A stretch of DNA of 64,000 nt, taken from the NCBI GenBank assembly GCA_965206275.1, contig OZ242203.1, forward strand, positions 1,480,474 through 1,544,473, given 5' to 3'. The notes under the pieces are model-generated. The model saw only the letters and a program-made list of their open reading frames with translations. It ran no database searches and had not been told where the DNA came from. The number at the start of each line of letters is the position of its first letter. Positions within the stretch are counted from its first letter, which is position 1. Shown piece after piece: positions 16,633 through 64,000 of this stretch. Made by a program: the position numbers and the translations under genes. The stretch is from Dehalococcoidia bacterium (lineage in GTDB: Bacteria > Chloroflexota > Dehalococcoidia > UBA6926).

Positions 16633-16639
16633 TGACGGG

Positions 16640-18324: not shown

Positions 18325-18410
18325 GCACCGCGCCCCCGTAGGTCGGAGAAGTATGAATATCTAGTGTAACGCACGCAGGCGAATTGGGGTTAGGGCAGAC
18401 CAGACGGCTG

Positions 18411-45933: not shown

Positions 45934-48324
45934 CTACTCTCTTTCACTTTGAGAAATCTCCGGCGCCTGTTGCAGGGGCTTCTCCATCCTGTAGCCGACG
46001 CGGGGCTCAGTGTGAATGTAACTGGGGTTGTCGGCGTCGTCCGCCAGTTTGTGGCGAAGATTTCTGATGAATGTGCGTACGGGACCGGAGTGGCCTGCGT
46101 GTCCCGGCCCCCATACCCGTTGCAGCAGGTGGTCATGGGTCAGCACGCGGCCAGCGTTGACCGAAAGCTCTACGAGTAGCCGGTACTCGATATCAGTCAA
46201 CCGGACTGGGCGTCCCGCCAGGTGGACCCGTCGCTCGGTGTAGTCGATGATCAGATTCCCCAGCCGGTAGGGTTCCGATGGCTCGGCCAGCTCGGGCGCT
46301 GCCCGTCGCCGCAGGGCCGTCTGGACCCTCGCCACGAGCTCAGTCGGCGAGAAGGGTTTGACTACGTAATCGTCTGCGCCGGCCTCCAACGCTCTGGCGA
46401 TGATCTGATCCCTGCCATAGGCCGACAGGAAGATCACGGGCACGTCAGAAAGCTCCGGGATGCTCTCCAAGAGTTCTATTCCGTCCGCTCCCGGCAGCAT
46501 CAGGTCGAGCAGCACCAGGTGCGGCCTCGCCTCCTCCACGAGACGGGCCACCTGTTGCGGGTCGCCCGTCACTATTGGCTCATATCCGGCATTCGCGAGC
46601 GCGTCCCGGACGAATCTGAGCGTCTGCGGGTCGTCATCCACCGCCAGAACGCGCGGCCGCTCCCGCCTCATCCTGCGGGTGCTGGTTGAGGCGCCGGGGG
46701 CGATGACCGGTACTGCGTGTCCGGCTTCTAGGACGACGGGTAGAGTGAACGCGAATCGGGTCCCCATGCCCGGTCCCTCGCTCTCTGCCCAGATGCGCCC
46801 CCCGTGTGCCTCCACTATCCCCTTGCAGATCGCAAGGCCCAGGCCCGAGCCGGCAATGCCCTCCCCACGCTCGTCCCCGTCGACACGTGAGAATTTCCTG
46901 AACAATTGGGGCATGAGGTCGGCGGACAAGCCTCTGCCGTCGTCGTCGACGCTGAAAACAACCTGAGCTTCGTCCTGCACGGCGGCTAACCGGATGACGG
47001 ACGACTCGGGAGAGTTCCTGGCTGCGTTGGTCAGCAGGTTGCCGATGACCTGGACGATGCGCCGCCGATCCGCCATCACCGCGGGCAGGTCCGGCTCGAC
47101 GTCAATCTCCATATTGTCTCTGCCTCCACCGCTGAGGAACGAACTCCTGGCCTGATCCACCAGAGCAGCGGCATCGGACGGCTCGGCGGAGACCGACAGC
47201 GTGCCCGACTCGATGCGGGCCATGTCGAGCAGGTCGGTGATCAGCGCGCTCATGTGGTTGGCCTGCTGCTCAATGATCTCGAAGAACAGGTCCATCTCCG
47301 CCGGGTCCAGCGACCTGGCCGACTCTTTCAGAGTTGTGGCGGACCCTTTGATGGAGGTGAGCGGCGCCCGCAGCTCGTGGCTCACGATGCCCAGGAACTC
47401 GGCCCGCTGCCTATCCATCTCCTCCAGCGGTGTCAGGTCCTGTATCGTGACGACGACGGACTCCACGTCGCCCTCATCCTTGCGGATGGGCGTGGCGTTG
47501 AGCAGCACGGTTACACTCCGGCCGTCCGGGACCTCGATGACGATCTCCTCGGCACGAACCGTCTCCGCCTCGCTCATCGCCTGTGCCAGGGGAAACTCCG
47601 CAAGGGAGAGCTCCCGCCCGTCCGCCCGCCGGGCCTTCGCCGTCTCCATTAGCCGCTCCAGCGGCTGATCCGGGTCTTGCAGGGCGTCGATGATCCTCGC
47701 GGCCTCCCGGTTGAACGACACGGGGGCTCCGGTGTCGGCGTCGAGCACGACGACGCCCACGGGCGAGGTGTTGACCAGCGTCTCCAGATTGGCCCTGGCA
47801 CGCCGCTCGTCCCGGTGCCTGCGGGCGTTGGCGATCACCAGCGCCGCCTGGGACGCGAACATGACGAGGGTCTCCTCGTCCTCCCGGCTGAACTCCTGAC
47901 CGGGACCGCTACGGGCGAGGTAGATGTTGCCCACGCCCTCTCCACCGTGGCGGATGGGCGCGGCGAGGAAGGAACTGACCGGCACGGGAGGGCGAAATTC
48001 GGGAAGACCCAGGGAGCTCATGTGGGCACTGAAATCTGCGAGTCGCAGCGGGTCGGGCATGGCGCTCAAATGCTCCAGGAACCGGAAACCCTCCGGCAAC
48101 TCCCATAGCCGCTCGGCCTCCTCGGGGGTCAGGCCCGCTCCCAGGAAGTCCTGCAGGCCGCCTGAATCGTCCAGCACGACGAGCACGCCGTAGCTGGCGC
48201 CGGTCAAGGACCGGGCGCTTTCGAGGACCTCCTGCAGCACCGTGTCGAGGTCGAGACTCTCGTTGATGCGCAGGCTGGCCTCGCTGAGCCGTGTCAGGCG
48301 CTCCCCCAGGGACCGGTTTTCCAT
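45934..48324 (-). CDS. sensor histidine kinase (GAF-PAS-HisKA-HATPase) fused to a complete OmpR-type response regulator (REC plus winged helix)
   Basis: H-box IVSHELRAPLTSIKG, G-box GSGLGLAICKGIVEAHGG, REC RVLAVDDDP...LLDLMLPGADG, and C-terminal Trans_reg_C (RLTDIEYRLLVEL...EPRVGYRM). Confidence 0.85.
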   Translation of the reverse strand: MENRSLGERLTRLSEASLRINESLDLDTVLQEVLESARSLTGASYGVLVVLDDSGGLQDFLGAGLTPEEAERLWELPEGFRFLEHLSAMPDPLRLADFSAHMSSLGLPEFRPPVPVSSFLAAPIRHGGEGVGNIYLARSGPGQEFSREDEETLVMFASQAALVIANARRHRDERRARANLETLVNTSPVGVVVLDADTGAPVSFNREAARIIDALQDPDQPLERLMETAKARRADGRELSLAEFPLAQAMSEAETVRAEEIVIEVPDGRSVTVLLNATPIRKDEGDVESVVVTIQDLTPLEEMDRQRAEFLGIVSHELRAPLTSIKGSATTLKESARSLDPAEMDLFFEIIEQQANHMSALITDLLDMARIESGTLSVSAEPSDAAALVDQARSSFLSGGGRDNMEIDVEPDLPAVMADRRRIVQVIGNLLTNAARNSPESSVIRLAAVQDEAQVVFSVDDDGRGLSADLMPQLFRKFSRVDGDERGEGIAGSGLGLAICKGIVEAHGGRIWAESEGPGMGTRFAFTLPVVLEAGHAVPVIAPGASTSTRRMRRERPRVLAVDDDPQTLRFVRDALANAGYEPIVTGDPQQVARLVEEARPHLVLLDLMLPGADGIELLESIPELSDVPVIFLSAYGRDQIIARALEAGADDYVVKPFSPTELVARVQTALRRRAAPELAEPSEPYRLGNLIIDYTERRVHLAGRPVRLTDIEYRLLVELSVNAGRVLTHDHLLQRVWGPGHAGHSGPVRTFIRNLRHKLADDADNPSYIHTEPRVGYRMEKPLQQAPEISQSERE

Positions 48325-48628: not shown

Positions 48629-51600
48629 ATGACCAACTCCGGCATTAGCTCTATATCCCCTTACATAAAGTGTTGGGCGCGGCATCATGAACGGACGCCT
48701 CCTTCCCACCGTTCGCGGACGGGCGTTCCTCGCCCCCTGTTCCTCCTCCTGGCAGCACTGGCCGCCGTCGCCTTTGTGCTCCTCTCCCCGACCCCGACCA
48801 ACGCGCAGAACGCGGACGACTGCGCCGGGGACAGGACCACCACCTGCTCCATCGCGGTGGGCAGCTCCGTCACCGGCGAGATCGAGAGCGCCAGCGATGT
48901 CGATTACTTCAGCATCTCCGTCACGTCGGGCGCCATCTACCAGTTCGACCTGGAAGGCTCGCCCACAAGCAAGGGAACGCTTGCGGACCCACACCTCAAT
49001 CTCTGGGGCAGCACCGGCGCCACCAGTCTTACGTCAGACAACAACAGCGGCACCGGCAATAACGCCCGCATTACCTGGACCGCCACCGGCACGGGGACCT
49101 TCTATGTCGCGACCTCTTCGAGTAACCCCGGCGCCACGGGCACCTACACCCTCACGGCGGCGGTCGCCCCCGTCACCCTGATCAGCAATGTGGGCCAGGG
49201 CGCGGATAGTGAAAATACTGGCAGCATCGATTATGCGCAGAACTTCACTACCGGGAGCAACTCGGGCGGTTACACGTTAACCAGCGTCGAAATCGTTTCA
49301 GAAGATCCTGAAGGTGACGATGCAAGCGTCTCTCTATGTACGGTCGATGCTTCGGGATTCCCAACTTCCGACTGTACGGCGCTTACGGCGCCGGGCAGTT
49401 TTGCGGCCGGAACGCTTGCGTTCACTGCCCCCGGCAATACGACGCTTGACGCCAACACGACCTACACGCTCCTCATTACTTCACCCGGCGGAGAAACTCT
49501 TACCTGGGACGCGACCACGTCCGACAGCGAGGACACGGGTGGAGCGACGGGCTGGAGCATCGCAAACGCCTATCACTTTAAGAGCCCCGGCTGGAGAACC
49601 ACCTCCAGCGGTAAATCGTTCCGCATCACGGTCAAGGGCACGGTGAAGGCGGACGTCCCCGGCGCCCCGACGAGCCTCACTGCCACCGCCGGCGACGCCC
49701 AGGTGGCACTGAGCTGGGCCGCGCCGGCCAGCGATGGCGGCGCGGCGGTCACGAAGTACCGCCACCGCCACAAGCTGAGCTCCGCGTCCACCTGGGGCAG
49801 CTGGACCGAGGTGACCGGCACGGCGGCGACGGTCACCGGCCTGACCAACGGCAGCGCCTACGACTTCGAGGTGCAGGCGAACAACTCGTCGGGCTGGGGC
49901 GCAAGCGCCTCGGCCAGCGCCACGCCGGCGGTGGGGCTCGGCGTTCACATCAGCCTGAACAGCGCCCAGACCAGCCCCATCGGCATGTGGTCCCCCGACG
50001 GCGAGACCCTGTGGGTGGGGCAGTGGACCTCAAGGCAGATCTACGCCTTCGACCTGTCCGACGGGAGCGAGGATACCTCGGAGGGATGGACCCTCACCAA
50101 CCCCGGGGCCGGCAGCGACAACAACATCAAGCCCACGGGCATCTATTCCGACGGCACCCACGTCTGGGTGTCCGACGCCGACCACGACCGGGTGTTCCGG
50201 TACGACTTCAGCAGCAAGTCGCATAACAGCGTCAACCTCGCGCTGCACAGCGACAACGGCAAGCGCCAGGGCCTCTGGTCCAACGGGACAACGGCCTGGA
50301 TTGCCGACAGCGACGACAACAAGCTCTACGCCTACACCCTGTCCGACTTCAGCCGCGACAGCGGCAAGGACATCGACCTGCACAGCGACAACGGCGAAGT
50401 CCGGGGCATCTGGAGCGACGGAACAATCATCTGGGCGCTGGACAGGGATGACGAGGTGATCTACGCCTACACCCTGTCCGACGGGAGCCGAGACGCGGAC
50501 CTCGACATCGACCTGCCCTCCGAAGGCGTCAACTACAACAGCATCTGGTCCGACGGGACCATCATGTACGTCATCGAGAACGCCGCCGGGTCCACCCGCA
50601 GCCCCCACATTCACCGGCTGCGGATGCCGCGGACCGTCGTCCTCGACCCCGTCCTGCTCAGCAACACCGGGCAGGCGCGAGACGGCCTTGATGACATTTC
50701 CACTTACACCTGGGCCGCGCAGCAGTTCACCACCGGGTCCAACGCCGCCGGCTACACCCTGAGCAGCGTCTCGGTGAGCCCCACCTTTACGGGAACGCCG
50801 TCGGTGACCATGTCGCTGCGCGCGGACGACGGCTCGGACAATCCGTCGTCCACTGATCTGGCCACCTTCGCCCCTCCCACGACCTGGTCTAGCGGGAATG
50901 CGAATGTGTTCACCCTGTCGACGCCCGTCGAATTGCAGGCGAACACCAAGTACTGGGTGCGCATGACGGCCTCGACCAGTTTTGAGGTCCCTTATGCCGA
51001 CGGCTCGAACTTGGACAGCGGCAGCCAGGCCGGTTGGGACGTCGAGCGTTCCTGCGACCCTGACGCCTGCTATACCGATGCCATCTACCAGATGATCCTG
51101 CGCGGCACGGTGGCGGTCCCGGCCGACGTGCTGCTCAGCAACACCGCGCAGACCTCGCTTACAGACGGCACTCAGTTCGACGGATTTACTTGGTTGGCGC
51201 GGCAATTCACGACCGGGCCCGACTCCGGTGGTTACATGCTGGGCAGTATCAGGTTGCTCGGCGGTGGATCGCAGAATACGGTGCCGATCAGCGTGTCCTT
51301 GCGCGCGGACAACGGCTCGAACCGGCCGTCGTCCACTGATCTGGCGACCTTCAATCCGCCGTCGTCGTGGGTTGACGGGGAGAACCTCTTTACCCGGTCG
51401 TCGGCTGTCACTTTGCAGGCGAATACCAAGTACTGGGTGTACATCGACACCTCATCAGCGATTGGCGCCGATGTTGCCGTACTCAAGCGTACCCTGAGCG
51501 ACCAGTTTGTCGGCAAAAGCGGTTGGAGCTTCGGGGGAGCATGTTTCAAGGAAACCGGTAACGTCCCCGTCAGTTGTGAGCTAGGTGATCCAGCAACCTA

Positions 51601-54600
51601 CTGGCAGATGGTCCTGAGCAGCACGGTGGTGACGACGGTTGCCCCCGGCGCCCCGACGAGCCTCACCGCCACCGCCGGCGACGCCCAGGTGGACCTGGCT
51701 TGGGCCGCGCCGGACAGCGACGGCGGCGCGGCCGTCACGATGTACCGCCACCGCCACAAGCTGACCTCCGCTACTACCTGGGGCAGCTGGACCGAGGTGT
51801 CGGCCACCACGTTGACCGCCACCGTCACCGGCCTGACCAACGACAGCGCCTACGACTTCGAGGTGCAGGCGCAGAACTCCGTGGGCTGGGGCGCAAGCGC
51901 CTCGGCCAGCGCGGCGCCCGTCTCCCTCGACCCCGTGCTGCTCAGCAACGACGGGCAGACGCCAGGCACGGATAGTCCTAGTGATCTCACCCTTTACGCT
52001 TGGGCCGCGCAGCAGTTCACCACCGGGTCCAACTCCACCGGGTACACGCTGAGCAGCGTCTCGGTGCGGGCCGGTGTCACAGGAACACCTACGGTGACCA
52101 TGTCGCTGCGCGCCGACGACGGCTCAGACAATCCGTCGTCCACTGATCTGGCCACGTTCACCGCCCCGTCGTTCTGGGTCAGCGGGAGTGCGAATGTCTT
52201 CACCCTGTCGACGCCGTTCGAGTTGGAGGCGAGCACCAAGTACTGGCTGTACATGACCGCCACCGGCGGCAGCTTCGAAGTGGATTTTGCCGATAGCTTG
52301 AACGCGGACAGCAGCAGCCTGGCTGGTTGGAGCATTGGGAGAGCCTGCGATGCCGACTTTTGCTATGACTCCTCCCCCTTCCAGGTGATCCTGCGCGGCA
52401 CAGTCGTGCCGACAACCGTGCTGATCAGCAATGTGGGCCAGGGCGGGGATGACGAACGTACTAGCAGGAACAGGAGCGCGCAGCGCTTCACTACCGGGAG
52501 CAACTCGGCCGGTTACACGTTGACCAGCGTCGAAGTCATCTCAGAAGACACTGCCGGTGACCGTTTTAGCGTCTCTGTGTGTACCGTCACTGGTTCGGGA
52601 TTCCCAACTTCCACGTGTACGGCGCTGACCGCGCCGGGCAGTTTTTCGGCTGGAACTCTTGCGTTCACCGCCCCCGACAATACGACGCTTGACGCCGGCA
52701 CGACGTACACGATCGTCATCGCTCCTGCCGGCAATGCATTCGTGAGTTTGGACACCACCACTGCCAACGGCGAGGACGCGGGTGGGGCAGCGGGCTGGAG
52801 CATCCGAAACAGCCTTGATTTTAACAACGGGGCAAACTGGGCAGTCTCCGCCAATGAATCGCTCCGCATCACGGTCAAGGGCACGGTGCGGCCCGTGGTC
52901 GTCCCCGGCGCCCCGACGTCCCTGACCGCCACCGCCGGGGTAAAGCAGATCGCACTGTCGTGGACCGCGCCGGCGTCTGACGGCGGCGCGGCTATCACCG
53001 GCTACACCCTGCAGGTCTCTGACTCCGATCCCTCCGGCACAGCGAACTGGGCCGACGTGTCACCACAGCCCCAGGGCACAGCCACGACCTACACCCACAC
53101 CGGTTTGGCCGACGGGGCGGAGCGCTGGTACCGGGTGGCCGCGACCAACAGCGTGGGCGACGGTGCGTACTCGGCGACGGCGACGGCCACCACCCATAAC
53201 GTCCCCGGCGCCCCGACGAATTTCACCGCCACCGCCGGCAACGCCCGGGTGGACCTGGCTTGGGACCCGCCGGCCAGCGACGGCGGCGCGCCGGTCACGA
53301 TGTACCGCCTCCGCCACAAGCTGAGCTCCGCGTCCAGCTGGGGCAGCTGGACCGAGCTCACCGGCACGACGGCGACCGTCCCCGGCCTGACCAACGGCAG
53401 CGCCTACGACTTCGAGGTGCAGGCGCAGAACTCCGTGGGCTGGGGCGCAAGCGCCTCGGCCAGCGCCACGCCCGCGCCCCCCGACCCCAACCCCGTGCTG
53501 CTCAGCAACGACGGGCAGACGACGTTCAGCCACCAGCTCCTGAATGATGTTGGCTGGCTCGCCGCGCAGTTCACCACCGGCTCCAACTCCGACGGTTACA
53601 CCCTGAGCAGCGTTGCGCTGATCGGCGATAACGCCCAGCAGACCGTCCCGTTGACCGTGACGCTGCGCGCGCGCAGCGGCGTAAGGCCCTCGTCCACCGT
53701 GCTGGCCACTTTCACAAACCCGTCGTCCTGGGTTGCCGGGGAGAACTTCTTCACCCTTTCCTCGCCCGTCAAGCTGGAGCCGGATACCTCGTACTGGGTG
53801 TACGCGGATACGAGCGGGGCCTCGAACAGTGACCTGGCCGGGGTTGCTTTCATCCTCAATAACGCTGCGGACGGGCGCAGCCTGCCCGGCTGGAGCTTCG
53901 GGTATTCCTGCACCAACGACACCTGTCTCTCCAGCAACGCCTATCGTTTCCAGGTGGTCCTGCGCGGCACGGTGACGAACCCCGCGCTGATCGACACAAC
54001 TGGCAATCTCCGTTCCACTATGTATAGGCTCGGTCACGGTCTGCATGAGGTGGAGTTCGTGGAGGGCCGCTATTACCGGGTGCATGTGGAAGGGCGGGGT
54101 TCTGACCCGGTGCGGGAGCCGCTGATTGCGGTGCTGGACTCGGAGCGCAGGGAGCTGGCGAACAATCGCTACAACCGGGGTCCGACGACTCATGGACCGG
54201 ATTGGGATTACAGCGGCGACGGTCTGGGGGCGAAGCAGGACCGGTTCTGGTATTGGCTGTTGCCGTCTGAGCAGCGCACGCCGGACACGCCGGACTACTG
54301 GAACCCGTACTACGACGAGTCCTTGGGTGCTAAGGGCCTGGCGGGGGCGTGGCGGGAGGACATCGACGATGTTCCGGAGTGCCCGTCGGGCACGATGTGT
54401 ACTAAAGAGCGCACGCCGGAGCATTTCCACCAGGACGACATCAGCTATCTGAACCCCTTCACGTTCAAGGCGCCCGCCTCGGGCACGTATTTCGTCCAGT
54501 TGCGGTCGTACACCTATGACGGCAACCAGTATCGGCTGACGGTGACCCAGGTGGATACCTCGGCCGACGACGAGCCCGCCGAGAGCACCGCGACGGCTGC

Positions 54601-57571
54601 GACGGCTGCGGCTGACGGTTCGTACCATCAGTTCCGGCTGGAGTTTCCCTTCGACCGCGACTGGGTGAAGCTCGAGAACCTGACGGTCGGCAACAGCTAT
54701 CAGGTGCAGGTCAAGGGCAGCATCGTGTACGGCTGCCAGAACTGCCGCACGGTGGCGCATCTGATGAGCATCCGCGATGCCGACGGCGACCTGGTGGACA
54801 GCACGGGGGCGTATCCCAGCCGTCAGACGTTCACTGCGACCAGCACGACCCATTTCGTGGTGGCGGGATCGCGCGCCGGCTCACGGGGCATGTGGAGCAG
54901 CAGGGACACCCGCTGGTACGTGAAAGTGACCGACCAGTCGGGCGCGGGCGGCCAGTCGGACGGCCAGCCTCGCAGTGACGGCTCGGGCGGCGGCGTGTCG
55001 GCCAAGAACGCCGCCCCGACGTCCAAGAGCGTCGTCCCGACCGCGCCGGCGCCGGTGGTCGACGACTACGGCGACAGCCCCGACACCGCGCAGCCGCTGG
55101 CCGACGGGGACGTGCTGGACGGGGTGATCGAGACCTCCGGCGACAAGGACTGGTTCAGAGCCGAGCTGACCGAGGGCCGCCGCTGGCGGGTGCGCGTGAT
55201 CCCCGCGGACCGTGACGGCGAGTACGAGGTGAACCTCTACGGCGTGTACGACGCGAACGGCAACGTGCTGGTCAGCTGGTCTCCCCGCTGGTTCGTGGTC
55301 GATCTGCATCCTCCCGCGGACGGGGTGCACTACTTCGCCGTCGGCTCCGACAACCCCCAGGCCGTGGGCGCCTACACGATCAAGCTCAAGGACATGGGGC
55401 CGTCGGATCGAGAGCCCCGACCCCAGCCTGAGACGGGCCTGCCGACGATCAGCGGCACGGCGCAGGTGGGCGAGACCCTGACGGCCGACACCTCGGGCAT
55501 CGCCGACGAGGACGGCCTGGACAACGTTTCGTACAGCTACCAGTGGGCAGCCGACGGCGAGGACATAGCGGGAGCCACGGACTCGACCTACACCCTGGCC
55601 GACGCCGACGAGGGCAAGGCCATAAGCGTTACTGTGTCCTTCACCGACGACGCGGGCAACGAGGAATCTGTGACCAGCGCGGCCACGGCTGCGGTGGAGG
55701 CCAGGCCCAACACTCCGGCCACCGGCCTGCCGACCATCAGCGGGACCGCCCAGGTGGGCGAGACGCTGACGGCCGACGCGTCCGGCATCGCCGACGAGGA
55801 CGGGCTGACCATCGCGGCGTTCGGCTACCAGTGGGCAGCCGACGGCGCGGACATATCCGGGGCCACGGACTCGACCTACACGCTTGTCGACGCCGACGCG
55901 GGCACGGCCATCAGCGTCACGGTGTCCTTCACCGACGACGCAGGGAACGAGGAGTCGCTGACCAGCGCGGCCACGGCTGCGGTGGAGGCGGCGATTGGGC
56001 AGCTGCCTGAACTTCCGGCCGGCTCGACGATTTTGTGGTCTGCCGACATGACGGTGGTGGACTACGGTGCAGGCTCGGTCGGCGCCGGAAGCGCCGACCT
56101 GTTCGCCAACCAGGTCAGCGCTGACAACCACGAGGCGCAGTGGCTGTGGTCCTACACGCCTGGCCGGCAGGTCGACCTCTCGCTTCTGACGGCCATCATG
56201 GACACCGAGGACCTGGTGCTGCACATAGGCGATCTTGAGCTTCCCTTTGCGGATGCGTCGGGCTCGTTCTCGAACTTCACCTGGTACGGCGTGGATGTGG
56301 ATTGGGGGGACGGCCAGACGCTGCCGGCGCGAATCGCTCGTGTGGCCCAGGTTTCAGAGCCTGTGGCAAACACCCCGGCCACCGGCCTCCCGACCATCAA
56401 CGGCACCGCCCAGGTGGGCGAGACGCTGACGGCGGACACATCGGCCATCACCGACGAGGACGGCCTGGACAACGCGACGTTCAGCTACCAGTGGCAGGCC
56501 GACGGCTCCGACATAGCCAACGCAACGGACTCGACCTACACCCCCGTCGACGCCGACGAGGGCGCGGCCATCAGCGTCACGGTGTCCTTCACCGACGACG
56601 CCGGCAACGAGGAGTCATTGACCAGCACCGCCACGGCGGTGGTGGAGGCCAAGCCCAACACTCCGGCCACCGGCCTTCCGACCATCGGCGGCACCGCCCA
56701 GGTGGGCGAAACGCTGACAGCGGACACGTCAAGCATCTCAGACGAGGACGGCCTGTCCAACGCGACATTCAGCTACCAGTGGGCAGCCGACGGCGCAGAC
56801 ATTGCAGGGGCGACGGGCTCAACCTACACCCTTGCCGACGCCGACGAGGGCACGGCCATAAGCGTCGAGGTGTCCTTCACCGACGACGCGGGCAATGACG
56901 AGTCGCTGACCAGCGCGGCTACGGCGGCCGTGGAGGCGAAGCCCAACACCCCGGCCACGGGAGCGCCGACTATGAGCGGGATCGCCCAGGTGGGCGAGAC
57001 GCTGACGGCGGACACATCGGCCATCACCGACGAGGACGGCCTGACCAACGTCTCGTACAGCTACCAGTGGGCAGCCGACGGCGCGGACATATCGGAAGCG
57101 ACGGACTCGACCTACACCCTGACCGACACGGACGAGGGCACGACCGTCACCGTAACGGTGTCGTTCACCGACGACGCGGGCAACGAGGAGTCTTTGACCA
57201 GCACGGCCACTGTGGCCGTGGCGGGCGTGCCGGCGACTCCGCTGACGGCGACGGTCTCGAATGTCCCGGCATCTCACGACGGGGAGAATGTCTTCACCTT
57301 CGAGTTGCGGTTCAGCGAGGAGTTCCCCATCAGCTACAGGACCCTGCGGGACTACGCCTTCATTGTGAGTGGCGGGGACGTGACGCGGGCGAAGCGGATC
57401 GAGAAGGGCAGCAACATTGCCTGGCGCATCCACGTCAGGCCGGACTCGAACGGCGCCGTGACCATCATCCTGCCCGTGACCACCGACTGCGATGCCCCGG
57501 GAGCCATCTGCACGGACGACGGCCGGATGCTCTCTACGCGTTTGGAGTTGACCATCGACGGTCCATCGTAG
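48629..57571 (+). CDS. giant secreted multidomain protein (2980 aa)
   Basis: Uninterrupted 8.9-kb ORF with a hydrophobic signal-like segment LFLLLAALAAVAFVLLSPTPTNA. It has PPC-like domains (DVDYFSISVTSGAIYQFDLEG), 5 FN3 domains (PGAPTSLTATAGDAQVALSWAAPASDGGA), 6 copies of a ~180-aa module built on the F-T-T-G motif (AQQFTTGSN..GYTLSSV), WSDGT/YAYTLSDGSRD propeller-like repeats and 5 tandem ~95-aa repeats. Confidence 0.8.
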   Translation: MTNSGISSISPYIKCWARHHERTPPSHRSRTGVPRPLFLLLAALAAVAFVLLSPTPTNAQNADDCAGDRTTTCSIAVGSSVTGEIESASDVDYFSISVTSGAIYQFDLEGSPTSKGTLADPHLNLWGSTGATSLTSDNNSGTGNNARITWTATGTGTFYVATSSSNPGATGTYTLTAAVAPVTLISNVGQGADSENTGSIDYAQNFTTGSNSGGYTLTSVEIVSEDPEGDDASVSLCTVDASGFPTSDCTALTAPGSFAAGTLAFTAPGNTTLDANTTYTLLITSPGGETLTWDATTSDSEDTGGATGWSIANAYHFKSPGWRTTSSGKSFRITVKGTVKADVPGAPTSLTATAGDAQVALSWAAPASDGGAAVTKYRHRHKLSSASTWGSWTEVTGTAATVTGLTNGSAYDFEVQANNSSGWGASASASATPAVGLGVHISLNSAQTSPIGMWSPDGETLWVGQWTSRQIYAFDLSDGSEDTSEGWTLTNPGAGSDNNIKPTGIYSDGTHVWVSDADHDRVFRYDFSSKSHNSVNLALHSDNGKRQGLWSNGTTAWIADSDDNKLYAYTLSDFSRDSGKDIDLHSDNGEVRGIWSDGTIIWALDRDDEVIYAYTLSDGSRDADLDIDLPSEGVNYNSIWSDGTIMYVIENAAGSTRSPHIHRLRMPRTVVLDPVLLSNTGQARDGLDDISTYTWAAQQFTTGSNAAGYTLSSVSVSPTFTGTPSVTMSLRADDGSDNPSSTDLATFAPPTTWSSGNANVFTLSTPVELQANTKYWVRMTASTSFEVPYADGSNLDSGSQAGWDVERSCDPDACYTDAIYQMILRGTVAVPADVLLSNTAQTSLTDGTQFDGFTWLARQFTTGPDSGGYMLGSIRLLGGGSQNTVPISVSLRADNGSNRPSSTDLATFNPPSSWVDGENLFTRSSAVTLQANTKYWVYIDTSSAIGADVAVLKRTLSDQFVGKSGWSFGGACFKETGNVPVSCELGDPATYWQMVLSSTVVTTVAPGAPTSLTATAGDAQVDLAWAAPDSDGGAAVTMYRHRHKLTSATTWGSWTEVSATTLTATVTGLTNDSAYDFEVQAQNSVGWGASASASAAPVSLDPVLLSNDGQTPGTDSPSDLTLYAWAAQQFTTGSNSTGYTLSSVSVRAGVTGTPTVTMSLRADDGSDNPSSTDLATFTAPSFWVSGSANVFTLSTPFELEASTKYWLYMTATGGSFEVDFADSLNADSSSLAGWSIGRACDADFCYDSSPFQVILRGTVVPTTVLISNVGQGGDDERTSRNRSAQRFTTGSNSAGYTLTSVEVISEDTAGDRFSVSVCTVTGSGFPTSTCTALTAPGSFSAGTLAFTAPDNTTLDAGTTYTIVIAPAGNAFVSLDTTTANGEDAGGAAGWSIRNSLDFNNGANWAVSANESLRITVKGTVRPVVVPGAPTSLTATAGVKQIALSWTAPASDGGAAITGYTLQVSDSDPSGTANWADVSPQPQGTATTYTHTGLADGAERWYRVAATNSVGDGAYSATATATTHNVPGAPTNFTATAGNARVDLAWDPPASDGGAPVTMYRLRHKLSSASSWGSWTELTGTTATVPGLTNGSAYDFEVQAQNSVGWGASASASATPAPPDPNPVLLSNDGQTTFSHQLLNDVGWLAAQFTTGSNSDGYTLSSVALIGDNAQQTVPLTVTLRARSGVRPSSTVLATFTNPSSWVAGENFFTLSSPVKLEPDTSYWVYADTSGASNSDLAGVAFILNNAADGRSLPGWSFGYSCTNDTCLSSNAYRFQVVLRGTVTNPALIDTTGNLRSTMYRLGHGLHEVEFVEGRYYRVHVEGRGSDPVREPLIAVLDSERRELANNRYNRGPTTHGPDWDYSGDGLGAKQDRFWYWLLPSEQRTPDTPDYWNPYYDESLGAKGLAGAWREDIDDVPECPSGTMCTKERTPEHFHQDDISYLNPFTFKAPASGTYFVQLRSYTYDGNQYRLTVTQVDTSADDEPAESTATAATAAADGSYHQFRLEFPFDRDWVKLENLTVGNSYQVQVKGSIVYGCQNCRTVAHLMSIRDADGDLVDSTGAYPSRQTFTATSTTHFVVAGSRAGSRGMWSSRDTRWYVKVTDQSGAGGQSDGQPRSDGSGGGVSAKNAAPTSKSVVPTAPAPVVDDYGDSPDTAQPLADGDVLDGVIETSGDKDWFRAELTEGRRWRVRVIPADRDGEYEVNLYGVYDANGNVLVSWSPRWFVVDLHPPADGVHYFAVGSDNPQAVGAYTIKLKDMGPSDREPRPQPETGLPTISGTAQVGETLTADTSGIADEDGLDNVSYSYQWAADGEDIAGATDSTYTLADADEGKAISVTVSFTDDAGNEESVTSAATAAVEARPNTPATGLPTISGTAQVGETLTADASGIADEDGLTIAAFGYQWAADGADISGATDSTYTLVDADAGTAISVTVSFTDDAGNEESLTSAATAAVEAAIGQLPELPAGSTILWSADMTVVDYGAGSVGAGSADLFANQVSADNHEAQWLWSYTPGRQVDLSLLTAIMDTEDLVLHIGDLELPFADASGSFSNFTWYGVDVDWGDGQTLPARIARVAQVSEPVANTPATGLPTINGTAQVGETLTADTSAITDEDGLDNATFSYQWQADGSDIANATDSTYTPVDADEGAAISVTVSFTDDAGNEESLTSTATAVVEAKPNTPATGLPTIGGTAQVGETLTADTSSISDEDGLSNATFSYQWAADGADIAGATGSTYTLADADEGTAISVEVSFTDDAGNDESLTSAATAAVEAKPNTPATGAPTMSGIAQVGETLTADTSAITDEDGLTNVSYSYQWAADGADISEATDSTYTLTDTDEGTTVTVTVSFTDDAGNEESLTSTATVAVAGVPATPLTATVSNVPASHDGENVFTFELRFSEEFPISYRTLRDYAFIVSGGDVTRAKRIEKGSNIAWRIHVRPDSNGAVTIILPVTTDCDAPGAICTDDGRMLSTRLELTIDGPS
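55432..57230 (+). repeat. five near-identical ~285-bp tandem repeats inside the giant gene (copies 2 and 3 separated by a ~370-bp unique insert)
   Basis: Repeat unit NTPATGLPTISGTAQVGETLTADTSGIADEDGL..YSYQWAADG.DI.GATDSTYTL.DADEG.AISVTVSFTDDAGNEESLTS. Similar antisense ORFs recur at 55588, 56152, 56536 and 56824, which confirms DNA-level identity. Confidence 0.85.
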
Positions 57572-57911: not shown

Positions 57912-59683
57912 GTGTGCATAGGTATATAAGCGCCTTGCTTTTCATTCTTGCGCTGACTGTCGCTTGTGCTGAATCACGAGAAGTCGCAGCGCCTGACGAA
58001 ACTCCTCCATCCGAGACGGTTTACATGAATGGCCGAGTCTTCACCCAGGACAAAGACCTGCCCTGGGCTGAGTCGCTGGTGACGGATGGGGACAGGATCG
58101 CCTTCGTGGGTTCCGATGAAGATGCTTTGCGATTCGCCGCTGAAGGTAGCAGGGTCGTAGACCTGCAAGGCCAGTTCGTGATGCCGGGGATTGTTGACGC
58201 GCACACGCACCCCGGACTGATCAGCGTTTGGGGCGATCTGTCAGCCCTGGAAGACGACGCCGGCGACAGCGAATCCGACGCAGACAGGATGCCCTCGGGG
58301 CCGCCGGAAGCAACCCTAGCTTGGCTGCAGCAGTACGCAAAGGACCACCGATTCACCTATGTTATTTCCCATGCGGGATGGGATGTCGCCGCCTACCTTC
58401 CCGACGGCCCCCACAAGAGGGACTTGGACAAGATAGCCAGGTTCAGACCCATCGTGTTGTACGACAATTCTGGGCACAGCGTATGGGTCAACTCCGCAAT
58501 GCTCCGATGGTTGGGCATCAACAGAGACACGCCGGACCCCAGCGAAAACCTTTCCTATATCGTGCGCGACGAGGACGGAGAACCCACCGGCTGGCTCAAG
58601 GAGTTTGTCCTGACCCACCACAGCGGCGGCAGGTTCGTCCCGGGCCACGACAAGCTGAAGGAGCGGATGCAGACGTACCTGGACTACATGTCAAGCAAGG
58701 GCATTACCACGATGCTGGACGCCGGAAACTTCAACATGGACGACGCCGTGTACAAGGCTGCGCATGAACTCGTACGAGAGGGCAGAATGCCGCTGCGCTG
58801 GGAGGCGACGTACCACGTATGGCTACCGGAACACATCGATACCGCTGTGGACTCCCTCACCCGCCTGAGGAAGGAGTACGGCTATGGCAACCTGCGGTTC
58901 AATACCATCAAGATTCACTACGACGGCCTGCAGGACGTTCTGACGGCCGCCATGCTGGAGCCCTACGTGACGGACCCCGACAACTACGGCGGCGTGCTGT
59001 TCTCGACGGAGCGAATGAGCAGCTTCATCCGGGAACTGGACGCCCACGGCATCAACCTGCACGTGCACACCGTTGGCGACCGCGCGACGAGGAATCTTCT
59101 GGACGCAGTCGAGCAGGCGCGGGACGCGCTGGGACGGCCCCTTAGGATGGAGGTCACGCTGAGCCACTTGTTCACCGTCGCAGAGGAGGACATCGCTCGA
59201 TTTGCCGAGCTGAACGTTCACGCCAACTTCACGCCCCACTGGTTCGGCGGAACGGTGTTCGGGGATGCTGGAGCGATCAACATCGGCCCGGAGCGTGCCG
59301 CCCGCTCTCAGGTCATCGGCCACTTCGTGCGAGAAGGGGCGAACATTACGCTGTCCAGCGACGTCATCCACGGCCCCGCGCGGGTGAACCCCTTCATCGG
59401 CATGCAGATGAGCATGACAAGGCGGGCAATTGAAGGGACCGACGCCGTCGCGCTGCCGCCGGCCAACGCCAGGATCTCGCTGGAGCAGGCGATTGCCGGC
59501 TACACCGTCAACGGCGCTGCGCAACTCGGTATGAAAAGGGAGATTGGCGCAATCAAAGCGGGACTGCTGGCAGACTTCATCGTCCTTCCACAGAACCCGT
59601 TTGAAACGGACGTGGAGAACATCCACACCATAGAGCCTAGCGCGACGATTGTGTCCGGTGTCCTGCGAAGCGGAGGCTTTTGA
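57899..59683 (+). CDS. amidohydrolase family (Amidohydro_3-like) lipoprotein
   Basis: Lipoprotein signal LFILALTVAC. Metal-binding VDAHTHP at the N-terminus of the barrel. 594 aa. Confidence 0.78.
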   Translation: MDRVSVHRYISALLFILALTVACAESREVAAPDETPPSETVYMNGRVFTQDKDLPWAESLVTDGDRIAFVGSDEDALRFAAEGSRVVDLQGQFVMPGIVDAHTHPGLISVWGDLSALEDDAGDSESDADRMPSGPPEATLAWLQQYAKDHRFTYVISHAGWDVAAYLPDGPHKRDLDKIARFRPIVLYDNSGHSVWVNSAMLRWLGINRDTPDPSENLSYIVRDEDGEPTGWLKEFVLTHHSGGRFVPGHDKLKERMQTYLDYMSSKGITTMLDAGNFNMDDAVYKAAHELVREGRMPLRWEATYHVWLPEHIDTAVDSLTRLRKEYGYGNLRFNTIKIHYDGLQDVLTAAMLEPYVTDPDNYGGVLFSTERMSSFIRELDAHGINLHVHTVGDRATRNLLDAVEQARDALGRPLRMEVTLSHLFTVAEEDIARFAELNVHANFTPHWFGGTVFGDAGAINIGPERAARSQVIGHFVREGANITLSSDVIHGPARVNPFIGMQMSMTRRAIEGTDAVALPPANARISLEQAIAGYTVNGAAQLGMKREIGAIKAGLLADFIVLPQNPFETDVENIHTIEPSATIVSGVLRSGGF

Positions 59684-59780
59684 GCAGCCTGTCGGATACC
59701 GCCGAAAGAAGCGAGATCTATATGCCTATGCAGAACGACATTGTAGGCGACGATGAACAACCGCGATCTTAGCGATAACA

Positions 59781-59866
59781 CTGGAGGGCGATACACTTCA
59801 GTCCTGCGAACAAGGTGAGCACTTGAGTTGGTCTCGGAGTGGTGAGACTAGGGACATTCCGCGCAA
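59781..59866. repeat. degenerate ~85-nt direct repeat, copy 1
   Basis: gggcgatac...tgcgaac...ttgagttggt...ggtgag...taggg shares its motif order with 60113..60200. Confidence 0.4.
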
Positions 59867-60112
59867 GAGAACATGAGCGTACTTGGCCACTATGAATGGA
59901 CTAACCACGATTCAAGGAAAGTGCTTGCTATCGTTTCACTTGCTGGCGAGTTTAGTTCAGTTACCCCTGACAGGACTGGATGGCGAACTTTCCAGTTGGT
60001 CGTTGTGTTGCAACGATAGCAGAGCTGTGGTGAGCGACAGTCTGAGGATCGGTGGCCCTCACTCCACCTCCGGCCCAGCGAATTCCGCTTGAGCTTCCGA
60101 GTTCGAGACCTC

Positions 60113-60200
60113 TACGTTGGGCGATACGGGTCGATATTGCGAACTGAGCGCGTGTTTGAGTTGGTGGTTGATTGGTGAGGGTAGGGGCTGAAACTTCATG
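60113..60200. repeat. degenerate ~85-nt direct repeat, copy 2
   Basis: See copy 1. A third weak partial match lies at ~59990..60040. Confidence 0.4.
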
Positions 60201-60202
60201 CG

Positions 60203-60616
60203 TCAGGTCTGTTCACCGTCTCTCAACAGCGCGACAAATCCCGCCTGTTCGAAGTCTTGATCGTAGGACAGAGCTTCAATAATGCCACACGCTTCCATCA
60301 CCAAGAAGCTTGCGCAGTCAGTGAGGCTCCAAGTCTGGTCGGCGCGAGGCACATATCGTTCGACAGCAGCCCAGAAATACGCATCGGTTTGAGAAGCGAT
60401 TTCGACCGAGGGATCGTCCTATATCTGCCTGACCATCTCGACGGCAGATGCGCGACGGGATTCGCCGAGGCGTGACGTGTCATTCAACGCCTCGGTGAGC
60501 ACCATCTGAGTTGTCACTACCTGGGTGGAGCCGAGTGTCGCAGCGGTCGCTATCGCGTGTTCGTGCAACTCATCACCGGAGCTCATGAGGGCAATTCCAA
60601 TATCCCGTGTCAGCAA
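60203..60616 (-). pseudogene. PIN-domain (VapC-like) toxin gene interrupted by in-frame TAG (complement of 60419..60421)
   Basis: Translation is MLTRDIGIALMSS...AIATAATLGSTQVVTT...VRQI*DDPSVEIASQTDAYF...LTDCASFLVMEACGIIEALSYDQDFEQAGFVALL. PIN N-terminal LTRDIG and C-terminal D..SF.VM....I.EALT.D.DF..AGF blocks share one frame on either side of the stop. Confidence 0.65.
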
Positions 60617-60628
60617 AGACCGTGGGCA

Positions 60629-60934
60629 CTAGTTCTTTGCCTTGGGGTGGCCGTAGAGGTAGTGCTTAAAGTTCTTGGCGCTGTCAGGCGGGACGCCTTC
60701 CCACAGATCCGGAGGGTAAGATTCGCGCAGCTTCTCGATCCTTTCGACAAGGCCGAGAAGCCCCTTTGACTTGTCGGACTCGTCATCAGTGGAATCTAAG
60801 GAAATCCCGTCACCCTTCCCATGGTAAGTAGGGTCACTGTGAACGGACACGACCACCTCTTTCCCTTCCTCCAAGGCGAGGGGTTCCAGAGGCGTCAGGA
60901 CGCCCTTTTCGTATTTGGCCCTTATCGTAGCCAC
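60629..60934 (-). CDS. DUF104 (AF2212-like) family antitoxin
   Basis: MATIRAKYEKGVLTPLEPLALEEGKEVVVSV is the characteristic DUF104 N-terminus. Immediately upstream of the PIN gene on the same strand. Confidence 0.6.
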   Translation of the reverse strand: MATIRAKYEKGVLTPLEPLALEEGKEVVVSVHSDPTYHGKGDGISLDSTDDESDKSKGLLGLVERIEKLRESYPPDLWEGVPPDSAKNFKHYLYGHPKAKN

Positions 60935-61226
60935 GAATAAACTCCCGAGGATTGCCGTCGACAGCGACTATACTTGTGATCCCTTTGCGCCAGTATAGCG
61001 AGAGAACTGATTAGTCTTTGATGCACCGAAGGTCGAGTGCCAGGGCTGTAGCACAGATCGTAGGAAATTCCAGATGCCGCCTTGAATGCATTGCCGAGAG
61101 CAGCTTTATGGCCGGGGCAAAGGCAATGACAGGAAAGGTTGGCATAACCGACGAATTCGATGACAGTCAGCTCAACCGGCGACACTATAGCTGTACAATT
61201 CAGGTAGCGCATTGTAGGTGGTCGTG

Positions 61227-64000
61227 ATGTCTCTGGCGAGTTTCCCTGGCGGTTCAGCGGCAAAGGTTGCCGACCTGTATGAAGCGGCGTGGACTGCCGA
61301 CTCTCTACTTGACCTCATCTCAGGCAGGGTGGTCGAGATCAGGTTCGAACCTCAGGGCCCGGACGGACAGGGTGTTGAATTCTATAGGTCGCTTCCTGAC
61401 AGCTCAAAGGAGTTCCATTCCGTTAAGCGCCAGGCTCCTGGCTCTGCAAGCGCGTGGACACCCTATCGGTTGACAGGAGCCCAAGACTCGACCGGAAGGA
61501 GCATCCTTGGCGACCTGTTTGGGCATCTTGATGAGGACCCACACGCCCGAGCCGTCTTCGTTAGCCAAGATAGCGCGGGCGAAATTCGTGAAATCTCTGA
61601 GCGCGCTAAGGCACTGTCTGACCACCGAGAATTCGTCGATGCGCTTTCAGAGATGCAGGCAAAATCACTCAGTGAAAGAATAGTCTCCATTGCTAGGGAT
61701 GCACACGATGCACACGAGAAGCTCGCGCGATGCGATTTCGAGACTATTGGCCACAACCAACTGCTTAGGCTAGTCGATGGTAGAATTCCGGCTCTAGTGA
61801 AAAGAGCGGATGGAGCTGACTTCGACCCTGCAGATGTCCGCAGATTCTTGAGCGAATTTGCCTGGCAACACTTGGGCTCCGATCCAGTAAGCCAAAGTGA
61901 CTTGGTTGCCGCGCTGCATGTTCGGGGATTTGCCGCGACTCCGTTACAGCGCGACGCCGCTGTACAAGAACGGGTCAAGGCGATAAACGGGGCCTTTACG
62001 GGCCGTGCTACGAGAACGCTCATTAACGGCAACTACATCGTCCGGCACCAAGCTAGGTCGATAGCAGATGACCTCATACACGGCGAACAATCGCTCATGC
62101 TGTCGGGAAATGCTGGCGTGGGCAAGACTTGCGTACTGGCGCAAGTCACCGAAATCCTTACGGGCGAAGAGATCCCGTATCTTGCTATTTCAATTGATGC
62201 TATAGAAGGTGCTCTCTCCTCCACGGATCTAGGTCGTAAGTTGGGGCTGCCAACATCTCCCGCGACTGTTCTCGGAGAGATCGCCGAAGGACACCGGGCA
62301 ATTCTCTGTGTGGACCAAGTTGATGCGTTGAGTTTTGTGGGCGGCCGCAATCCGCAGGGACACCAGATTTTGGAAGAGTTGATCGGAGAGACCAAGAATT
62401 ATCCTAATCTACTGATTTTATTGGCTTGCCGATCCTTCGATCTCGAGAATGACCGCATCCTCAAAGGACTGGTTGAAGGTGGGTTTCCAGCGGCCAGGCG
62501 CATCGATGTCGAACTTTTGAGCGATGAAGACGTGCAGACCGTCCTTTCAGCGGCTGGTGTGCCGCAAGATATCCTTGAGTTTAGGCAGCTTGAATTGCTG
62601 CGAATTCCCCTTCACCTGTATCTGTTTCTGGGCGGCAATAGATCCCCAAACGCTGCTTGGTCAAGAAGGAGCCTCTTCGATGCCTATTGGGATGAGCTGC
62701 AACGTCGAGTCGACCCGTCTCTAGGAACTGGTGCATTCCGAGATGCAGTAAAGAGCCTCGCAAACATGTTGAGCAGTCGCCGGCGCCTTCGTGCACCTAA
62801 GGTTAGCCTAGACGCACACGTTTCGACCTTGGACGCGATGGCCTCTGAAGGGGCTGTCGTTATGGATGACACCACAGTGAGTTTCTTCCATGCGACATTT
62901 TTTGACTATGCGTTCGCGAGGGGCTTTGTCGCGACTCAACAGGACCTAGTCGGATGGCTCCTTAGTGATTCCCAAGAACTCTTCCGACGTAGCCAAGTTC
63001 GACAGGTCCTGGAATTCCTGAGGGACGGAGATCTTGGAGCCTACTTGGATGTCCTAGGTCGTTTCCTGAACGATGGCAGAATTCGATTCCATCTGAAGCG
63101 ACTGGTGCTTGACTGGTTGGGACAGCTTTCGACCCCGCTGCTAGGCGAATGGCAGATACTCGAAGGATTAGACGAGAAACTCGCGGGTCACATGCTAAGC
63201 GCCATCTACAACAGAGTCCCGTGGTTCGACTTGCTCAATGAGTCGGGGTATCTCGACGAATGGACTAAACTTGGCAGTCAAAGTCGCCTCCAGCGAGCTT
63301 ACTACTTGTGTCAATGGCCAGGTGTTTTCTTGTTGCGCTCCGAAATCGCAGCATATCACCTCCGGAGGATGGCCGACGGAGATAGTGCCTATAGGGCGCG
63401 ATTTGCCTCTAGGATGACTTTTGGGGATGTCCATCACAGTCGCGAGATGTTCGACGTTTTTCTTGAGTTCCTTCGCGACGGTACCCTTGATGGACTAGGT
63501 GGCTCAGGTGGGGCTGGTGACTGGTGGCTGATGCTCTCAAAGATGTCCAGGGAAAACCCGGGATTCTGTTGTGAAGCGATTGGATGCTGGCTTGACCGAC
63601 AGGAGGAATTAGATCCGCCTGAAACGGACATCGATCAGATTGGCGGGGCTTGGTGGAGCAATTTCAGCGAGGAGGTTATTCGGGAGTCGGCATCTAGAGC
63701 TCCTACTCAATTCGCGTCAGAGATCTTCCCTCGAGTAGCAATTGCTGCCATGGGTGAAGAACGTCGCCAATGGGAGTACTTTCTTGCTCCGGTTCGTCAA
63801 CATCTGATTGAAGGGCTTTCGGACGCTCTGAGCAAATTGTCCCAAGAAGACCCCGAAACCCTAGACAGTCTCTTTGCTTCTATCACGCAAGATGCACCCA
63901 AGCTCATCCAAGGGTTACGACTCCGAGCTTGGGCGGCCAATCGTGAGCAGTATGCAAACATGATCCTAGAGTTTCTCATTGGCCACCAAGACCTCTGGCA
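61227..64000 (+). CDS. large NACHT/STAND-like P-loop NTPase, 5'-partial view (at least 924 aa, runs off window end)
   Basis: Hand translation from ATG 61227 (SD aggtgg 8 nt upstream, stop TAG at 61215 in frame) shows no stop codon to position 64000. The other five frames are littered with stops and the ORF track shows no competing ORFs. Walker A LSGNAGVGKTCVLAQV, Walker B-like AILCVDQVDALS (compare the NACHT hhhhDGhDE motif), then >500 aa of W-rich helical repeats. Lower GC than the chromosome. Confidence 0.6.
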   Translation, partial: MSLASFPGGSAAKVADLYEAAWTADSLLDLISGRVVEIRFEPQGPDGQGVEFYRSLPDSSKEFHSVKRQAPGSASAWTPYRLTGAQDSTGRSILGDLFGHLDEDPHARAVFVSQDSAGEIREISERAKALSDHREFVDALSEMQAKSLSERIVSIARDAHDAHEKLARCDFETIGHNQLLRLVDGRIPALVKRADGADFDPADVRRFLSEFAWQHLGSDPVSQSDLVAALHVRGFAATPLQRDAAVQERVKAINGAFTGRATRTLINGNYIVRHQARSIADDLIHGEQSLMLSGNAGVGKTCVLAQVTEILTGEEIPYLAISIDAIEGALSSTDLGRKLGLPTSPATVLGEIAEGHRAILCVDQVDALSFVGGRNPQGHQILEELIGETKNYPNLLILLACRSFDLENDRILKGLVEGGFPAARRIDVELLSDEDVQTVLSAAGVPQDILEFRQLELLRIPLHLYLFLGGNRSPNAAWSRRSLFDAYWDELQRRVDPSLGTGAFRDAVKSLANMLSSRRRLRAPKVSLDAHVSTLDAMASEGAVVMDDTTVSFFHATFFDYAFARGFVATQQDLVGWLLSDSQELFRRSQVRQVLEFLRDGDLGAYLDVLGRFLNDGRIRFHLKRLVLDWLGQLSTPLLGEWQILEGLDEKLAGHMLSAIYNRVPWFDLLNESGYLDEWTKLGSQSRLQRAYYLCQWPGVFLLRSEIAAYHLRRMADGDSAYRARFASRMTFGDVHHSREMFDVFLEFLRDGTLDGLGGSGGAGDWWLMLSKMSRENPGFCCEAIGCWLDRQEELDPPETDIDQIGGAWWSNFSEEVIRESASRAPTQFASEIFPRVAIAAMGEERRQWEYFLAPVRQHLIEGLSDALSKLSQEDPETLDSLFASITQDAPKLIQGLRLRAWAANREQYANMILEFLIGHQDLW

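Follow-up and report, generated by a model that had tools for sequence, protein, structure and literature searches.

The gene that begins at position 61227 of the DNA analysed here (the window, 64,000 nucleotides from a Dehalococcoidia bacterium; NCBI GenBank assembly GCA_965206275.1, contig OZ242203.1, positions 1,480,474 to 1,544,473 of the forward strand) encodes a distant and divergent member of the Avs7 family of STAND proteins, and not a new kind of defence system. We consider it very likely that the protein is a single-protein antiviral STAND of the Avs7 type, in which a Cap4-type nuclease is followed by a STAND switch and a helical sensor. As far as can be read from the sequence, the ligands of the STAND core, the sensor, the C-terminal helix, the effector and the genomic context of Avs7 all have their counterparts here. 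An earlier note on this DNA, made from its letters without database searches, had proposed a candidate for a novel type of anti-phage defence gene with the effector-NTPase-sensor layout of Avs proteins. The layout is borne out by collinearity with SeAvs7, the Avs7 protein of Salmonella enterica; the novelty is not, as the protein is collinear from end to end with a family already characterised in 2026 (Lee et al., Nature 657:735-743, 2026, PMC13581612; bioRxiv 10.64898/2026.01.04.697583). This removes a false lead, since neither the N-terminal domain nor the whole gene is a new kind of defence component.

SeAvs7 is the type protein of a family that is defined by its C-terminal sensor, bilobed and sharply bent in SeAvs7, and in which at least 20 types of N-terminal effector occur, the effector of SeAvs7 being a Cap4 nuclease; its structures are deposited as PDB 9N00, 9N01 and 9YIX (PMC13581612). 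Nucleotide is bound by the Lys and Thr of Walker A, by D358 (a ligand of Mg and ATP), by R395 (ATP gamma-phosphate) and, in the resting state, by H545 (ADP beta-phosphate), and a short conserved C-terminal helix (residues 1511-1521) clashes with the nucleotide-binding domain upon activation (PMC13581612). SeAvs7 is activated by the phage major capsid protein (MCP), incorporates EF-Tu, forms a tetramer and cleaves double-stranded DNA (PMC13581612).

The reading frame and the complete protein

The frame at 61227-64000 on the forward strand comprises 924 codons without a stop, which the base composition of the segment itself would produce by chance with a probability of 5.7e-18. Re-translation thus agrees with the earlier note, which had reported at least 924 open codons up to the end of the window and had correctly explained the absence of the frame from its list of open reading frames (ORFs): it was left out solely for running past the end of the window. 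Upstream of the ATG at 61227 stand an in-frame TAG (61215-61217) and AGGTGG, a Shine-Dalgarno-like hexamer, and as a start this ATG agrees with the N-termini of all homologues, in which G8 and G9 are invariant and stand at the same positions. A protein of 1,491 aa already on record (P0001) is 100% identical to the translation across all 924 visible residues. It is recorded on one contig of 1,866,860 bp, and as the longest contig listed for the exact copy of the window's MetH is equally long, the two are taken to be the same contig. From the length of P0001 we predict that the gene ends at about 65702, outside the window, so that 61227-64000 represents 924 of 1,491 codons (62%) of the gene for this nuclease, STAND NTPase and helical-sensor protein.

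Collinearity with Avs7

When the visible 924-aa fragment was compared with the PDB by phmmer, it gave a single match, the chain of Salmonella enterica Avs7 (9n00_A, E=2.6e-13). The full-length 1,491-aa P0001 gave no match in the phmmer comparison with the PDB, a result that we attribute to the behaviour of the filters, and profiles were used instead; for long, repeat-rich proteins a negative single-sequence search is not to be trusted without a profile search. The family profile represents 69 full-length relatives, and all conservation counts below are over these 69 sequences. Searched against the PDB with hmmsearch, it found SeAvs7 (9n00) at E=4.4e-70 in two collinear blocks, the first pairing profile positions 13-652 with SeAvs7 residues 11-643 (E=2.6e-46) and the second pairing positions 961-1500 with residues 961-1522 (E=2.6e-20). 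The remaining PDB matches of the profile were P-loop or repeat noise, Avs2 (9o4e) among them at E=0.13. A non-STAND ATPase family, which the earlier note had named as the best match that would tell against its proposal, did not come out on top; the best match is the STAND protein SeAvs7.

For a profile of canonical Avs7, the printed alignment served to rebuild SeAvs7 residues 11-643, relatives were retrieved and 26 of them were aligned. The comparison of the two profiles by hhalign gave a probability of 100% and E=9.1e-63 over 1,391 collinear columns, extending from 27 to 1520 in the family of the window protein and from 5 to 1520 of 1521 in canonical Avs7. The two proteins are alike in their three modules and in length (1,491 aa here, 1,523 aa in SeAvs7). 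They differ in that identity is about 23% over the N-terminal ~580 residues, with the kinship of the sensors seen by profiles only, and in their hosts, which are Chloroflexota/SAR202-like here and an enterobacterium in the case of SeAvs7. The closest homologue of the protein is 72% identical, and a scan of genome contigs for homologues gave two loci that are 54% identical. The Avs7 family is hereby extended to a very divergent clade (~23% identity) from Chloroflexota/SAR202-like uncultured bacteria, whose repertoire of phage defences is poorly known.

The nuclease and the NTPase

The first module, residues 1 to ~268 (61227-62030, forward strand), is on the evidence of the alignments a PD-(D/E)xK nuclease domain of the Cap4/DUF4297 type with a variant motif, E...E...(S/Q)xK. 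A Cap4-type nuclease thus stands at the N-terminus both here and in SeAvs7, with the difference that the motif reads E...E...SxK in the window protein and D...D...QxK in SeAvs7. The putative active-site residues, identified by hhalign and by their counts in the family, lie within 61347-61427 on the forward strand: E41 (61347-61349), E51 (61377-61379) and S65-V66-K67 (61419-61427) are paired with D38, D46 and Q60-C-K62 of SeAvs7. Among the relatives E41 is retained in 67 and E51 likewise in 67, the other two having Asp; K67 is found in 68, and position 65 is Ser in 55 and Gln in 13. The full set of E41, E51, Ser or Gln at 65, and K67 is kept by 66 of the 69, and we suggest that the nuclease is very probably catalytically active. 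Scanned as a single sequence against Pfam and PADLOC, the N-terminal 274 aa returned nothing useful, no nuclease model being significant. The earlier note had described a domain of ~290 aa and of unknown function, which turns out to be of a known type; its speculative guess at a nuclease-like D...E..K arrangement was right in kind, as the residues align with the nuclease site of SeAvs7.

The second module, a STAND-type NTPase with nucleotide-binding domain, helical domain and winged helix, was delimited by the alignment to SeAvs7 and occupies residues ~269-640 (62031-63146, forward strand). Its Walker A motif, GNAGVGKT (residues 294-301; 62106-62129, forward strand), aligns with the GSGKT motif of SeAvs7, and the relatives show no variation (69/69) at A296, G297, G299 and K300. 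The same holds for D363, Q364 and D366 of the Walker B motif, ILCVDQVD (residues 359-366; 62301-62324, forward strand), in which D363 aligns with D358 of SeAvs7. Both motifs had been pointed out from the sequence before (as GNAGVGKT and LCVDQVDAL), and they are present as described. Two further nucleotide ligands of SeAvs7 have invariant equivalents (69/69) in the alignment, namely Arg402 (62430-62432, forward strand) for Arg395 and, in the winged-helix domain, His555 (62889-62891, forward strand) for His545, where FFHATFFD aligns to TFGHQTLLD. Thus K300/T301, D363, R402 and H555, none of which varies in the family (69/69), align with the nucleotide-binding residues of SeAvs7, a likeness that extends from the Walker A Lys to the resting-state His.

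The helical sensor and its trigger

From residue 641 the protein continues as an all-alpha, HEAT/TPR-like sensor of ~850 residues in two lobes, the start of which (the N-lobe, residues 641-924) is encoded at 63147-64000 on the forward strand, the remainder to residue 1491 lying beyond the window. An AF2 model of residues 640-1491 consists of helices throughout (pLDDT 88.0, pTM 0.58), in keeping with the profiles and with the long helical C-terminal region described in the earlier note. The sensor is collinear with that of SeAvs7 down to the C-terminal helix: the model places a terminal helix at sensor residues 841-849, equivalent to residues 1480-1488 of the protein, and the C-terminal alignment reaches SeAvs7 1520-1522 in the hmmsearch, the sensor-profile and the hhalign comparisons. 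With E=3.5e-6, SeAvs7 was the sole PDB match (E<=1) of a profile made from the sensor of 8 sequences, and the three pieces of this alignment are collinear and extend to the C-terminal helix. Single-sequence scans of Pfam and PADLOC with the C-terminal 874 aa gave nothing useful. Of the SeAvs7 residues that contact the MCP, N1204 aligns with N1183, which is near-invariant (65/69).

A number of observations weigh against assigning the protein to Avs7. It shares little identity with SeAvs7, 23% by BLASTP (over 581 aa) and 12% in hhalign. The nuclease motif has Ser where Cap4 and SeAvs7 have Gln, in 55 of 69 members, and the last 38% of the gene lies beyond the window together with all downstream sequence. 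As a single sequence the sensor gave no match in phmmer against the PDB, and its N-lobe (~650-960) was aligned only in the profile-profile comparison. Y1289, an MCP contact of SeAvs7, is paired with Arg, and Ala, Lys and Gly stand opposite the EF-Tu contacts K1044, H1048 and D1059. Foldseek with the sensor gave generic HEAT/ARM solenoids only (TM <=0.31), and neither fold search listed 9n00 among its matches.

From the analogy with SeAvs7 we infer, for the clade of the window protein, the trigger, the oligomeric state and stoichiometry, the cleavage of DNA and any role of EF-Tu. In the uninfected cell the protein would be a monomer locked with ADP, with His555 touching the nucleotide and the nuclease sequestered. 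Upon infection, the sensor would clamp a newly made structural protein of the phage, most probably an HK97-fold MCP, and clamping would release the ADP. Binding of ATP through K300, D363 and R402 would then drive oligomerisation, by which the nuclease domains would be assembled into an active DNA-cutting unit and the infection aborted.

The EF-Tu contact residues of SeAvs7 are not conserved here and the sensor is strongly diverged, which leaves room for a different trigger or for a mechanism without the cofactor. Thus, an alternative is that a nuclease and NTPase of the Avs7 kind are combined with a sensor that has been retargeted to a phage protein other than an HK97-fold MCP, or that recognises the MCP without recruiting EF-Tu. 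Retargeting has precedent in that the sensors of different Avs proteins have come, by evolution, to recognise 14 phage proteins (PMC13581612), and it would fit with a kinship to the SeAvs7 sensor that profiles alone detect, with the N-lobe that hmmsearch left unaligned and with the loss of the EF-Tu contacts and of one of the two aligned MCP contacts. Against this alternative, the hhalign comparison is collinear over the entire sensor, from the N-lobe to the C-terminal helix, and the other aligned MCP contact falls on the near-invariant N1183. Furthermore, recognition of the MCP by the sensors of Avs7 and Dsr1 depends on overall shape and charge complementarity and not on specific residues, and holds across very different proteins that carry this sensor (PMC13581612). 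We therefore regard retargeting as distinctly unlikely and favor an Avs7-type protein that senses the capsid. In either case, the clade provides a natural experiment on the extent to which Avs7 can drift in its capsid-sensing surface and in its dependence on EF-Tu.

Dsr1 (defence-associated sirtuin 1) shares the Avs7-type sensor and is likewise triggered by the MCP (PMC13581612). It differs in having a SIR2 effector without a STAND NTPase, whereas the window protein contains a P-loop NTPase; no SIR2 or Dsr1 model matched the window protein, and Dsr1 was rejected as its identity.

Sensors of this type are abundant: a search of representative sequences with the sensor profile (E<=1e-3) yielded 3,197 clusters at 50% identity, the majority being proteins of about 1,500 aa in which the sensor begins near residue 640. 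A recurrent class of 860-900 aa (e.g. P0235, P0238, P0245, P0259 and P0272) consists of the sensor alone, from residue ~15-30, and may represent split Avs7-like systems with a separate NTPase gene or, alternatively, systematic truncations. Short variants in which the sensor starts at ~170-280 lack any recognisable domain at the N-terminus, probably because the gene calls are truncated; they provided no evidence for Dsr1-like architectures.

Comparison with other STAND families and nuclease systems

A second alternative, that the protein belongs to another named STAND family (NACHT/bNACHT, Avs2/AVAST type 2 or the PADLOC candidate PDC-M54) and not to Avs7, draws on matches to the NTPase. PADLOC gave PDC-M54A at E=2.4e-15 (residues 287-571, positions 317-613 of a 1,621- or 1,657-position model) and Avs2 at E=1e-6 (residues 286-403 only), and these do reflect a related STAND NTPase core. 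In Pfam there were sub-threshold P-loop matches to AAA_16, NACHT, nSTAND3 and nSTAND5, and the NCBIfam model for Avs2 (NF041813), whose cut-off is 1000 bits, scored weakly, reaching 12 bits. All the PADLOC and NCBIfam matches are restricted to residues ~285-585, in other words to the NTPase core, and leave the nuclease and the sensor uncovered. Membership in NACHT/bNACHT, and with it the NACHT-like NTPase of the earlier note, is rejected, since the Pfam model (PF05729) reached 14.8-17.0 bits against its gathering cut-off of 26.7 and covered the P-loop alone (residues 290-312). Avs2/AVAST type 2 is likewise rejected, there being no full-length match to it and the PDB entry for Avs2 giving E=0.13 where SeAvs7 gives 4.4e-70. 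PDC-M54A is rejected as well, its match being confined to the NTPase core. Canonical Avs7, when compared with PADLOC 2.0, itself shows weak matches to LmuA and PDC-M54A only, and the match of the window protein to PDC-M54A thus reflects a general relatedness of NTPases; no mention of PDC-M54 was found in the literature searched. Taken together, we find it very improbable that a family other than Avs7 is the right one.

We point out that PADLOC 2.0 is without a real Avs7 model, so that standard annotation leaves the gene hypothetical. Pfam and NCBIfam likewise leave such proteins unnamed, and profiles of the relatives or the 2026 structure are needed to recognise them.

The nuclease fold is common to several further defence proteins, and CBASS Cap4 (a DUF4297 endonuclease joined to SAVED), SeAvs3, LmuA of Lamassu and HamA of Hachiman share it with the window protein at 12-14% sequence identity. 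Unlike in CBASS Cap4, LmuA and HamA, where the partner is SAVED, SMC-associated or a helicase, the nuclease is fused here to a STAND NTPase and a helical sensor. CBASS Cap4 proper, in which the nuclease is joined to a SAVED/CARF sensor of cyclic oligonucleotides and shares an operon with a CD-NTase, was rejected, as the NTPase and the helical sensor follow after residue 268 and no CD-NTase gene was seen adjacent in the window.

Neighbourhoods of the homologues

The neighbourhoods of homologues were examined at seven loci (L003 to L009, the last of which holds the closest homologue), and at all seven the neighbours include an integrase, a recombinase, a toxin-antitoxin (TA) pair or a known defence gene. 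A serine recombinase (1610-3220), an Mrr-helicase and a methylase are found at L003, PIN toxin-antitoxin pairs at L004, ArdC, AlpA and an integrase at L005, and McrBC, a relaxase-like gene and a serine recombinase (17866-19455) at L006, while L007 carries an Eco57I-like gene, integrases and HepT/MNT. At L008 a Bil (ubiquitin-like) defence operon (3457-6335) lies directly beside the STAND homologue. At L009 a CBASS pair of CD-NTase and patatin (14866-16821) directly follows the STAND gene, and a serine recombinase (7347-8979) and a cNMP-binding/TIR protein precede it. L008 and L009 are good examples of the clustering of defence genes into islands in this clade. The earlier note had suggested checking whether homologues are conserved in defence contexts, and they proved to have defence or mobile-element neighbours throughout. 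As no partner gene is conserved across the loci, we suggest that the protein acts alone; in this respect it again resembles SeAvs7, which is a solitary gene found in variable defence or mobile-element contexts.

That the gene encodes a STAND ATPase with a housekeeping or regulatory role, or is a pseudogene with a misleading open frame, is hardly credible and largely refuted: the decay of a neighbouring PIN toxin gene (see below) and the 3' third of the gene that is not visible in the window would allow for it, and against it stand the improbability of the open frame, the identical 1,491-aa product on record, the intact catalytic and nucleotide-binding residues of the window copy, an effector nuclease of the type used by CBASS, Avs3, Lamassu and Hachiman, and the defence or mobile elements around the relatives in 7/7 loci. 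The gene is a real and probably functional defence gene of the Avs7 type.

The toxin-antitoxin neighbour and the mobile context

Just upstream of the STAND gene, and divergent from it, lies an intact gene for an AF2212-like antitoxin of 101 aa (60629-60934, reverse strand; Pfam AF2212-like, E=9.9e-11). It is followed on the same strand by a VapC-type PIN toxin pseudogene (60200-60630), in which the frame translations reveal one in-frame stop, at 'RQI*DDP', and one N-terminal frameshift; the stitched sequence matches Pfam PIN at 2.7e-8. The toxin-antitoxin module that the earlier note had placed beside the gene therefore exists in part: the TA locus does adjoin the gene and its antitoxin is intact, but the toxin has decayed. 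In L009 an intact PIN/antitoxin pair is found at 9030-9622, in the same position relative to the STAND gene. The PIN pseudogene shares 61% identity with the 141-aa PIN gene that is intact at that locus, the C-terminal half of the antitoxin shares 48% with the small gene that lies upstream of the STAND homologue there, and the flanks of the two loci show 68-78% DNA identity. Given the intact pair in the same place in L009, we suggest that the TA pair and the STAND gene may move together as a cassette.

GC content is 0.539 at 59700-64000 and 0.619 at 1-59700, and the GC content at third codon positions (GC3) is 0.54 in the STAND gene as against 0.72 in MetH and 0.76 in the adjacent amidohydrolase, which confirms the foreign composition and low-GC tail remarked upon in the earlier note. 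The relatives of MetH are found in Chloroflexota and SAR202 metagenome-assembled genomes at 65-68% identity, with sister copies at 90-98%. As the GC3 of the STAND gene is 0.54 and its nearest relative is only 72% identical, where MetH has sisters at 90-98%, the STAND gene is an accessory gene that was probably acquired horizontally. Directly after the stop of the amidohydrolase, about 500 bp (59684-60200) are without a convincing gene, and GC content falls from ~0.60 to ~0.55. The similarity at DNA level to the L009 flank starts at 60118, and we take 59684-60200 to be probably the left junction of the foreign segment. An Rfam scan of 59500-61400 matched no family, and a scan for promoters and terminators remained at chance level.

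A large serine recombinase is encoded at 41272-42960 on the reverse strand (Pfam Resolvase, Recombinase and Zn_ribbon_recom), and its frame overlaps, on the opposite strand, a tRNA-Ala(tgc) gene at 41284-41359 (forward strand). It is 70% identical to the recombinase of L006, 51% to that of L003 and 58-81% in the case of L009, and these three recombinases sit 1-7 kb from the STAND homologues. As related recombinases thus occur near STAND homologues elsewhere, at three loci, a mobile vehicle may be common to them, and the recombinase in the window may, although this is unproven, be the mobilising enzyme of an element that carries the defence gene. The repeated linkage with one family of serine recombinases and with a PIN/antitoxin pair hints at a route by which the gene spreads. 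The recombinase and the STAND gene are separated by 17 kb of genes with a higher GC content, which code for an oxygenase, a hybrid histidine kinase, the FN3 protein of 2,980 aa and the amidohydrolase. A search at 41-64 kb for an att-like direct repeat of the tRNA-Ala found none, the only repeats being internal to the giant FN3 gene. The tRNA-integrated island of the earlier note did not gain support from this search and, with no att repeat and 17 kb of higher-GC genes in between, a tRNA-bounded island is unproven.

These linkages also allow a broader proposal, which we regard as rather unlikely, namely that this clade, found chiefly in Chloroflexota and metagenomes, has retained the chassis of Avs7 (the STAND switch and a Cap4-type nuclease with the unusual E...E...SxK site) and combines it with a sensor that is directed at another phage component or is free of EF-Tu, perhaps as a fixed cassette with the PIN/AF2212 pair on large-serine-recombinase elements. 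If true, the clade would be an Avs subfamily in its own right, distinct in trigger and in vehicle, in marine and uncultured bacteria.

The first 40 kb of the window are ordinary chromosome, with genes for MetH, phosphoenolpyruvate (PEP) synthase, fumarase, an enzyme of the EPSP-synthase family and CoA transferases. Between the recombinase and the STAND gene, a 2,980-aa ORF at 48629-57571 (forward strand) has PPC and multiple FN3 domains and a raised GC content of 0.63-0.70, and probably encodes a giant surface or adhesin-like protein; its internal DNA repeats comprise five copies of ~300 nt at 55433-57256 and several copies of 270-300 nt at 49.2-53.5 kb. At 45934-48324 on the reverse strand, a 796-aa hybrid signalling protein unites GAF, PAS, HisKA, HATPase and receiver domains with a winged-helix DNA-binding output (Trans_reg_C) in one polypeptide.

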